From contig OZ242214.1 of NCBI GenBank assembly GCA_965206595.1, positions 2,880,001 to 2,944,000 of the forward strand: DNA of 64,000 nucleotides, in the 5' to 3' direction. A program made the translations under genes and the position numbers. The notes beneath the pieces were generated by a model, which worked only from the letters and a program-made list of their open reading frames with translations, made no database searches and was not told the DNA's origin. This DNA comes from Candidatus Latescibacterota bacterium (GTDB lineage Bacteria; Latescibacterota; UBA2968; UBA8231). Shown here piece after piece: positions 10,012 to 10,249 of the stretch (positions are counted from its first letter, which is position 1; each line of letters begins with the position of its first letter).

Positions 10012-10128
10012 TATTCAATGAGGCCGGGGCAACGAAGCCCCGGAATAACGCACAATTGTGCTGGGGAAACGGCAACTTCCATCGCTTCAACGAGGTTCCG
10101 AGCAAAGGTGGGGTTGCGCATCGGAAAT
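10012..10128 (-). CRISPR. Mini-CRISPR / crRNA-like RNA (two degenerate I-G-type repeats, one 34 nt spacer)
   Basis: Minus strand: hairpin repeat ...TCGGAACCTCGTTGAAGC, spacer GATGGAAGTTGCCGTTTCCCCAGCACAATTGTGC, repeat GTTATTCCGGGGCTTCGTTGCCCCGGCCTCATTGAATA. Confidence 0.75.
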
Positions 10129-10129
10129 A

Positions 10130-10249
10130 TATGTTATATATTCTATTTGATGGAAGTTGTTGTTTATATTTATTTTTATTATAGAATAAATAGGCTATTG
10201 TGTCAAATCACCGCTGTGGAAAGGCGCAGCCAACAAACGAGGAGAGACC
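10130..10249 (+). promoter_or_regulatory. AT-rich cas operon promoter containing a PAM-flanked target of the mini-CRISPR spacer
   Basis: Very AT-rich; TTGTTT(10160)-16 nt-TAGAAT(10182) candidate -35/-10; TTT + GATGGAAGTTGttGTTT at 10146-10165; GGAG RBS before csb1. Confidence 0.6.

Follow-up and report, generated by a model that had tools for sequence, protein, structure and literature searches.

A conserved CreR-type mini-array predicted to direct type I-G Cascade to the promoter of a hybrid type I-G/III-B cas operon

The stretch of 64,000 nucleotides (nt) analyzed here, hereafter called the window, comes from a Candidatus Latescibacterota bacterium (assembly GCA_965206595.1, contig OZ242214.1, positions 2,880,001 to 2,944,000 of the forward strand) and contains, on its minus strand between 10012 and 10128, a one-spacer CRISPR mini-array. 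On the sequence evidence this element, which is real and conserved, is a mini-array of the CreR type from a type I-G system and belongs to a class that is already known, and we consider it highly probable that it is a creR-type gene, the guide-like RNA of which parks the type I-G Cascade on its own cas promoter. Autorepression by CreR has been demonstrated experimentally for the types I-B, I-E and V-A, while creA-like elements of "I-U", the old name of I-G, are stated in Figure S7 only, as far as the available text of that work goes (Liu et al. 2023, bioRxiv 10.1101/2023.03.10.532045). A type I-F1 mini-array guide was likewise shown by experiment to repress without cutting, in a study whose Table 1 gives 235 I-G loci with a fraction of 0.04 carrying a mini-array, and whose available text describes no I-G example (Shmakov et al. 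2023, PMC10120712). The main text of a later preprint on phage-borne versions contains none of the terms "I-G", "I-U" or "type III". In all, no described type I-G case was found in the literature; the supplements of Liu et al. and Shmakov et al. may hold one.

The mini-array consists of a first degenerate repeat (psiR1), a pseudo-spacer (psiS) and a second degenerate repeat (psiR2), the coordinates of which are listed in Table 1. An earlier reading of the window (the original prediction) had described a degenerate hairpin repeat, a spacer and a second repeat on this strand, and every sequence detail of that description was borne out when the letters were read directly. Both pseudo-repeats are similar to the 36-nt repeat that makes up the canonical array at 32672-40305, and they are located 125-240 nt upstream of cas7g. 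The last 12 nt of psiR1 differ from the canonical repeat end in one base and those of psiR2 in the final two bases, and psiR1, psiR2 and the canonical repeat, each folded alone, all give a hairpin followed by exactly 12 unpaired nt, with the psiR2 stem being fully paired although its sequence is unlike the canonical stem. A unit of repeat, pseudo-spacer and repeat, derived from the system's own CRISPR repeat, is found in this way at the cas locus, with psiR1 keeping the bases of the 5' handle and psiR2 keeping the 3' hairpin, as in the CreR class. It does not have the make-up of a canonical array, containing only two divergent repeats and one spacer, and a match to self DNA that ends at position 17. 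Outside the canonical array, a 14-nt repeat-end probe (up to 3 mismatches) matched only the two pseudo-repeats and three weak sites in the window, and no sequence similar to 10005-10210 was found in a phage collection of 50,697 records. A study of the type I-G effector found that Csb2 cuts the repeat 4 nt after the base of the hairpin, leaving an 8-nt 5' handle, and is retained on the 3' hairpin of an effector that has seven Cas7 subunits (PMC9638904). The predicted hairpin-plus-12-nt geometry of psiR1 and psiR2 fits this published cut exactly. The predicted 8-nt 5' handle is made up of the last 8 nt of psiR1 (10091 to 10084), seven of them as in the canonical handle, and its first base is the same as the RNA start that the original prediction had placed "near 10091", while psiR2 would provide the 3' hairpin handle of the mature RNA.

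The site matched by the pseudo-spacer lies 101 nt before cas7g on the plus strand. Alignment confirmed the earlier claim that spacer positions 1-11 and 14-17 (15 of 17) match 10149-10165 behind a TTT, and this TTT agrees with the TTN reported as the protospacer adjacent motif (PAM) of type I-G (PMC9638904). The seed of psiS (positions 1-5 plus 7-11) has 17 sites in the 7.05-Mb genome when no PAM rule is applied, psiS and the target included, whereas with a TTN PAM the target is the single site in the genome. Partial complementarity that is seed-proximal and PAM-flanked, as is characteristic of the CreR class, was thus found at one place only.

The number of related loci and the agreement between their pseudo-spacers and targets were examined next to the window. 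A Cas7g scan of species-representative genomes provided 80 loci with 63-86% identity (cited below by L numbers), which together with the window give 81 sequences. In 22 of these, cas8g lies directly upstream of cas7g (with cas3g upstream of cas8g in 21), so the operon starts elsewhere there. A scan anchored on the 5-nt handle core returned 18 matches to seed plus TT-PAM in 16 sequences, of which 14 show the full psiR1-psiS-psiR2 architecture; the other four matches (one each in L022, L024 and L065 and one at a second window site) fall within coding sequence, have no psiR2 hairpin and were rejected as spurious. A covariance model built from the 14 mini-arrays added seven more (L079, L027, L063, L021, L014, L029 and L040), bringing the mini-array total to 21 in 81 sequences, and also matched L061 (psiR2 only) and L054 (a true array). 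In the alignment of the 14 mini-arrays, the six bases at the core of the handle never vary. Across the same 14, every cell of the psiR2 hairpin is paired (98/98), with compensatory changes in four of the seven stem pairs; the covariation score was reached by none of 500 shuffles and collapsed in slid controls, while the end of psiR2, its dispensable part, is degenerate.

All 14 pseudo-spacers match the upstream region of their own locus, while only 14 of 1120 cross-locus pairings match, seven of which hit the true target of a related array. Pseudo-spacer position 9 differs between L036 and L038 and the targets differ likewise, so that the spacer-promoter covariation in homologous loci that the original prediction had proposed as a check was indeed observed. 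In a best-match test without any PAM rule, which covered 800 nt and scored only those 15 positions at which pairing is expected, an outlier best site emerged in 18 of the 21 mini-arrays, with 13-15 of 15 positions matched against 9-12 for the runner-up, and 17 of these 18 outlier targets carry TT at PAM positions -3/-2. The pairing profile was compiled from 18 pairs, leaving out L063 (CTA PAM), L021 and L040 (no target), L061 and L054. Positions 1-5, 7-11 and 13-17 are matched in 249 of 270 cases (~92%), while position 6 is matched in 5 of 18, position 12 in 3 of 18, position 18 in 3 of 18 and positions 19-30 in 39 of 216; positions 6, 12, 18 and beyond pair at chance level. Positions 13-17, which were not used in finding the targets, are matched in 81 of 90 cases, as against the 3 of 18 cases seen for position 12 (Fisher p = 9e-10).

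Three further observations were made on these relatives. The Cas7g relatives occur in metagenome-assembled genomes (MAGs) labelled as many different phyla, several with sponge-associated names in their record titles, which suggests a wide horizontal spread of this type I-G variant. In L016 and L017, near-identical contigs of one MAG, no mini-array was found by handle scan or covariance model, and a TTA-flanked site upstream of cas7g (minus strand, ~2409) is matched by the pseudo-spacers of L022 and L034. The 3' half of psiS (10048-10066) contains a small palindromic hairpin rich in guanine and cytosine (GC), and hairpins of this type were also observed in L013, L011, L023, L044, L079 and L029; at ≤ -5 kcal/mol (-5 to -12) they are present in 7 of 18 mini-arrays. 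Over the whole set, no significant difference from the 91 real spacers in the array of the window was found (p = 0.14), and the hairpins were dropped as evidence for this reason.

The pairing periodicity of five plus one and the TTN PAM are as predicted for a guide bound to Cascade. A protein operator is disfavoured, because freedom at every sixth base and a one-sided TTN would not be expected of it. The original prediction of a CreA/CreR-class RNA for I-G Cascade gains strong support from the TTN of the clear targets (17 of 18), this periodicity, the stop after position 17 and the co-variation. Type III backbones also skip every sixth base, and an 8-nt handle of this kind is common to Cas6-processed CRISPR RNAs (crRNAs). 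As Cmr genes lie within the same operon, the RNA might also guide the type III-B (Cmr) complex instead of the type I-G Cascade, but we give this scarcely any credence: a TTN PAM that is conserved on the DNA is a mark of type I-G, and a Cmr4 query gave an in-operon match, apart from the window, only in the L013 genome, where it lies ~9.4 kb downstream of the cas7g start on the same strand (9.6 kb in the window). In nine other mini-array genomes the same query gave no match or matches far from the locus. Because Cmr4 lies near the locus only in the window and L013 among the genomes queried, the regulatory element is assigned, on this comparison, to the type I-G system, and it appears that, in the window's lineage, the III-B/csx1 cassette entered by insertion behind a promoter that was regulated already.

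Promoters were located by consensus scans alone. Neither strand of the 7.05-Mb genome has a perfect sigma-70 consensus promoter with a 17-nt spacer other than the predicted promoter of the mini-array, the transcript of which would start at ~10171 and cross the target (at about +6 to +25), psiR1, psiS and psiR2. For the cas operon there are two candidates, (i) and (ii) in Table 1. Candidate (i) has its predicted start at ~10149, the first base of the target, and its score is reached by only 2% of the control windows in the window locus, while the position of candidate (ii) has no counterpart in the consensus scans of the relatives. A promoter-like site on the plus strand (at least 9/12) ends 4-20 nt before the first target base in 12 of 19 loci, 11 of them with a perfect consensus -35 hexamer and 17-nt spacing, whereas control windows of equal size within ±600 nt attain such a score at a median frequency of 0.00. 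The original prediction had the target overlapping a candidate -35 box of the cas operon. A weak candidate of that kind does exist at 10160-10165, but the promoter-like sites of the relatives sit upstream of the target, and this part of the prediction was not upheld. Since those sites lie just upstream of the target and the window has the same geometry in a weaker form, the target is more likely to lie at the predicted cas transcription start than on the -35 box. Under either candidate, a bound complex would cover the cas promoter. From its predicted start to the right of the target, the mini-array is read leftwards, so that the predicted promoters face each other with the target in their ~22-nt overlap, and transcription of the mini-array would also be blocked by the same complex.

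Several points weigh against an autorepression guide. In the window, psiS positions 12 and 13 are both mismatched, while position 13 normally pairs in the relatives. The base in which the predicted handle differs from the canonical one is its first, the psiR1 loop is 9 nt longer than the canonical loop, and the psiR1 fold is no better than that of shuffles (z = -1.33; 16 of 200 shuffles equal it); given the long loop, weak fold and changed handle base, processing of psiR1 by Csb2 is a prediction. A blast search of the array's own 92 spacers against the genome found no protospacer, only chance matches of 17-21 nt, and the system's PAM is therefore not independently derivable. Candidate promoter (i) is weak, with 8/12 overall and a -35 of only 3/6, and its start is predicted only. 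The closest relative, L013, has only 11 of 15 positions matched and ties with a background site, although its best site is nonetheless at the homologous place with a TTG PAM; the outlier target of L063 has CTA as its PAM, and no target was detectable for L021 and L040 in the PAM-free test within 800 nt. A global control of the handle scan was not discriminating (0.019 per handle-like site, against 0 to 0.059 for 29 permuted motifs), the guide-target signal emerging only once the mini-array architecture is required.

A raw scan rate inside the range of the permuted controls would also suit a decayed or stray duplicated array end, the spacer of which resembles its AT-rich neighbourhood by chance and has no function. 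The repeats are degenerate and the spacer is single, as such a remnant would have them, the intergenic DNA is AT-rich (37% GC against 64% in the genome), which raises chance matches, and a second orphan mini-array of the genome (~6,049,900) is without a TTN-flanked target in the genome. A remnant is nevertheless extremely unlikely in our estimation, as the architecture recurs in 21 of 81 loci from several phyla, in which differing pseudo-spacers each match their own neighbourhood, the mismatches fall at positions 6, 12 and 18 beside a conserved PAM, the psiR2 stem carries compensatory changes, and the genome's sole perfect consensus promoter with a 17-nt spacer is predicted to drive the mini-array. 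The second mini-array (genome ~6,049,860-6,049,985, plus strand) lies just upstream of an open reading frame (ORF); its repeat end equals the canonical one, its spacer is 39 nt long, and it also has a hairpin pseudo-repeat. The spacer begins with the same 8 bases that come after the last repeat in the main array, and its seed has no TTN-flanked match in the genome.

Two observations on the predicted transcript also count against a guide acting on DNA. The RNA starting at ~10171 would include the complement of the target, and in its minimum free energy fold the pseudo-spacer is paired with this complement (z = -4.1; none of 200 shuffles equals it). The minus-strand 5' leader might thus pair with the pseudo-spacer and control processing, stability or termination at the RNA level, with no Cascade on DNA. 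We regard such a role as very improbable. An RNA helix would not tolerate mismatches at every sixth base, nor would it need a TTN beside one arm, and in L076 the mini-array lies on the strand of the target, where such a helix is impossible. Minus-strand promoters of at least 9/12 that place the target inside the transcript were found only in the window, L013 and L011 (12, 10 and 9 of 12, respectively), with lower scores elsewhere.

The region between the target and cas7g also has to be considered, since the targeted promoter could drive a toxic small RNA or peptide before cas7g, with the mini-array as the antitoxin of a CreTA-type addiction module. A small ORF (54-69 amino acids, aa) begins soon after the target in seven of the first 14 loci, and a ribosome-binding site is visible for several of these ORFs; the window has a 36-codon ORF that starts inside the target and would be leaderless if transcription begins at ~10149. 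However, this ORF has no ribosome-binding site and is not conserved, with L013 and L011 reaching a stop after 6 and 11 codons, respectively. The gap to cas7g is only those 101 nt, the first downstream gene of the window is cas7g, and no toxin gene was found under the targeted promoter there, the 36-codon ORF being the only one present. In addition, the small ORFs match no Pfam family above threshold. The chance of an addiction module is accordingly very small in our judgement. The seven small ORFs are located at L023:2322-2510, L049:2230-2394, L011:2225-2428, L044:2302-2511, L077:2305-2511, L062:2238-2414 and L034:2037-2237, and in these loci the small ORF, and not cas7g, is the first gene behind the regulated promoter. 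The products of L023 and L049 look similar, as do those of L011, L044 and L077.

From the anatomy, conservation and co-variation of the mini-array we infer how the autorepression guide may be expressed and processed, and how it may bind, repress and be relieved. The mini-array would be transcribed from its very strong predicted promoter, and the Cas6 domain of Csb2 would cut 4 nt after each repeat hairpin, giving an RNA of ~72 nt in which the 36-nt pseudo-spacer stands between the 8-nt 5' handle and a 28-nt hairpin handle at the 3' end. This RNA would be loaded into the type I-G Cascade (Cas7g, Csb2 and short Cas8g, with Cas3g), and the complex would recognise the TTT PAM and pair with the first 17 nt only, in three segments of 5 nt. 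In type I systems, pairing that ends at position 17 should prevent a complete R-loop and Cas3 cutting. Pairing of 17 nt would then be too short for cleavage, and Cascade would remain as a roadblock at the predicted cas start and at about +6 to +25 of the opposing mini-array transcript, holding down the cas operon, including the type III-B module and csx1, and the mini-array RNA together. The crRNAs of the canonical array would compete with the regulatory RNA for Cascade, and if Cascade were lost or titrated, through anti-CRISPRs or through an abundance of competing crRNAs, the expression of all the genes of the operon would rise. Repression of the whole operon, and de-repression of III-B/Csx1 by an anti-CRISPR, are what we infer from the structure of the operon and the published behaviour of CreR. 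That the integrity of the I-G Cascade sets the level of III-B/Csx1, that a disabled Cascade raises this backup arm, and that one complex throttles both promoters is a tentative proposal, which we think possible and do not favour.

Table 1. Positions in the window of the mini-array, its target, the predicted promoters and the CRISPR-cas genes
Feature	Position	Strand	Remarks
psiR2, second degenerate repeat	10012-10047	-	36 nt; 7-bp GC-rich hairpin, then 12 nt
psiS, pseudo-spacer	10048-10083	-	36 nt; positions 1-11 and 14-17 match target
psiR1, first degenerate repeat	10084-10128	-	45 nt; enlarged hairpin, then 12 nt
Candidate cas promoter (i)	10114-10142	+	-35 10114-10119 (3/6), 17-nt spacer, -10 10137-10142 (5/6)
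PAM TTT	10146-10148	+	type I-G TTN kind
Target (protospacer-like site)	10149-10165	+	15/17 match to psiS
Alternative candidate cas promoter (ii)	10160-10187	+	-35 10160-10165, 16-nt spacer, -10 10182-10187; 8/12
Predicted mini-array promoter	10178-10206	-	perfect -35 (10206 to 10201) and -10 (10183 to 10178), 17-nt spacer; 12/12
cas7g (csb1)	10250-11452	+	NCBIfam/PADLOC
csb2 (cas5/6g)	11452-13812	+	786 aa; Cas5-like and Cas6-like parts both match
csx1	within 13739-15553	+	CARF-HEPN-CARF
cmr1, cas10/cmr2, cmr3, cmr4, cmr5, cmr6	15519-22062	+	
cas3g	22044-24992	+	
Short cas8g	24914-25921	+	NCBIfam name "Cas3-extension family"
Three tandem AAA-ATPase/PD-(D/E)XK paralogues	26269-30219		between cas8g and cas2
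cas2	30410-30700		
cas4g/cas1g	30714-32489		
Canonical CRISPR array	32672-40305	+	99 copies of 36-nt repeat

The cas genes of Table 1 were assigned with NCBIfam and PADLOC, and those between 10250 and 25921 overlap or almost abut. Within 10200-30000, no promoter-like site was detected by the consensus scan, where shuffles give an expectation of 4.0, and the number of terminator-like sites is that of the background (16 vs 18.3), so a single operon headed by cas7g is plausible. Membership in type I-G is indicated by matches to the NCBIfam models TIGR02570, TIGR02165, TIGR02621, NF049934 and NF049935, all above their cut-offs, and by the PADLOC assignments of Cas7g, Cas56g, Cas3g and Cas8g. The long Csx17 form of Cas8g was not found in a family search of the genome, a search that detected nothing in control genomes either and is therefore uninformative. 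Csb2, with 786 aa against family profiles of ~430-490 positions, has its Cas5-like part at residues 1-288 and its Cas6-like part at 477-781, with an insert of roughly 190 residues between them. The three tandem predicted AAA-ATPases belong to PF09820, and the middle copy also matches the PD-(D/E)XK family PF08011.

Irregularity was observed at the leader-proximal end of the canonical array (32672-33300), where the repeat spacings are 58, 63, 78, 56, 89, 74, 59 and 113 nt and several spacers are only 20-27 nt long, with two of 53 and 77 nt, while those in the rest of the array range from 34 to 44 nt. At 39875-40269 a 395-nt insertion splits one array spacer; with its 16-nt terminal inverted repeats, and with 10 nt of the spacer sequence beside it duplicated in direct orientation, it is like a small non-autonomous transposable element. 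In addition, an 80-nt direct repeat with 86% identity (9870-9949 and 40328-40407) brackets the entire 30-kb CRISPR-cas region, one copy being the 3' end of the ORF just to the mini-array's left and the other a fragment just to the right of the last CRISPR repeat, suggesting that the region was inserted or moved as a block.

In comparison with the CreR elements of types I-B, I-E and V-A, the window's element shares a degenerate two-repeat mini-CRISPR beside the effector genes, a psiR1 that keeps 5'-handle bases, a psiR2 that keeps the 3' handle, a pseudo-spacer with a short seed-proximal stretch of a PAM-flanked site at the effector promoter, which here is a predicted one, and an expected autorepression that senses crRNA load and anti-CRISPRs. 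It differs in its subtype, I-G, in an operon that adds a type III-B module and csx1, and in a predicted mini-array promoter that faces the cas promoter, so that the complex would also block the transcript of the regulator. The regulatory mini-arrays described in PMC10120712 likewise have partial, PAM-flanked matches to cas promoters (a predicted promoter in the case of the window), with mismatches at every sixth position noted in the text, whereas here an I-G family is given with its PAM, its 17-nt pairing rule and its predicted promoter geometry. The same source mentions an archaeal composite locus of I-B and III-C with a candidate target upstream of cmr1 (PMC10120712). CreA of the haloarchaeal I-B CreTA is also a crRNA-like RNA that blocks a promoter through Cascade by partial complementarity (PMC10120712; bioRxiv 10.1101/2023.03.10.532045), although the window shows no evident toxin gene in the interval from the target to cas7g. 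CreA of Haloarcula hispanica represses two promoters that flank a single target (PMC10120712; bioRxiv 10.1101/2023.03.10.532045), a layout to which the facing promoters may be likened. The long tracrRNA (tracr-L) of the Streptococcus pyogenes cas9 system is another natural guide that represses its own effector promoter, with ~11 base pairs of complementarity (PMC10120712), but it acts in a class 2 system with a single-protein effector, and its RNA architecture and origin differ.

The regulatory principle is already published, and the gain from the mini-arrays described here is one of extension and detail, with no new mechanism. The standout local features are the predicted control of an operon that also encodes III-B and Csx1 and the layout of facing promoters. 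Type I-G is the least studied of the type I subtypes, and its PAM and target recognition are still open (PMC9638904). The natural self-targets of the mini-arrays reveal, from genomes, the binding rules that I-G Cascade would follow, namely a TTN PAM and three 5-nt segments with positions 6, 12 and 18 free, and the limit of pairing to 17 nt evidently serves, on the predicted pairing, to avoid self-cutting. If the proposed control of the operon is true, one CRISPR type gates another within a single operon, which bears on the responses of hosts to anti-CRISPRs; an anti-CRISPR or decoy RNA that disables Cascade would then automatically raise the RNA-sensing III-B/Csx1 arm as a built-in backup.

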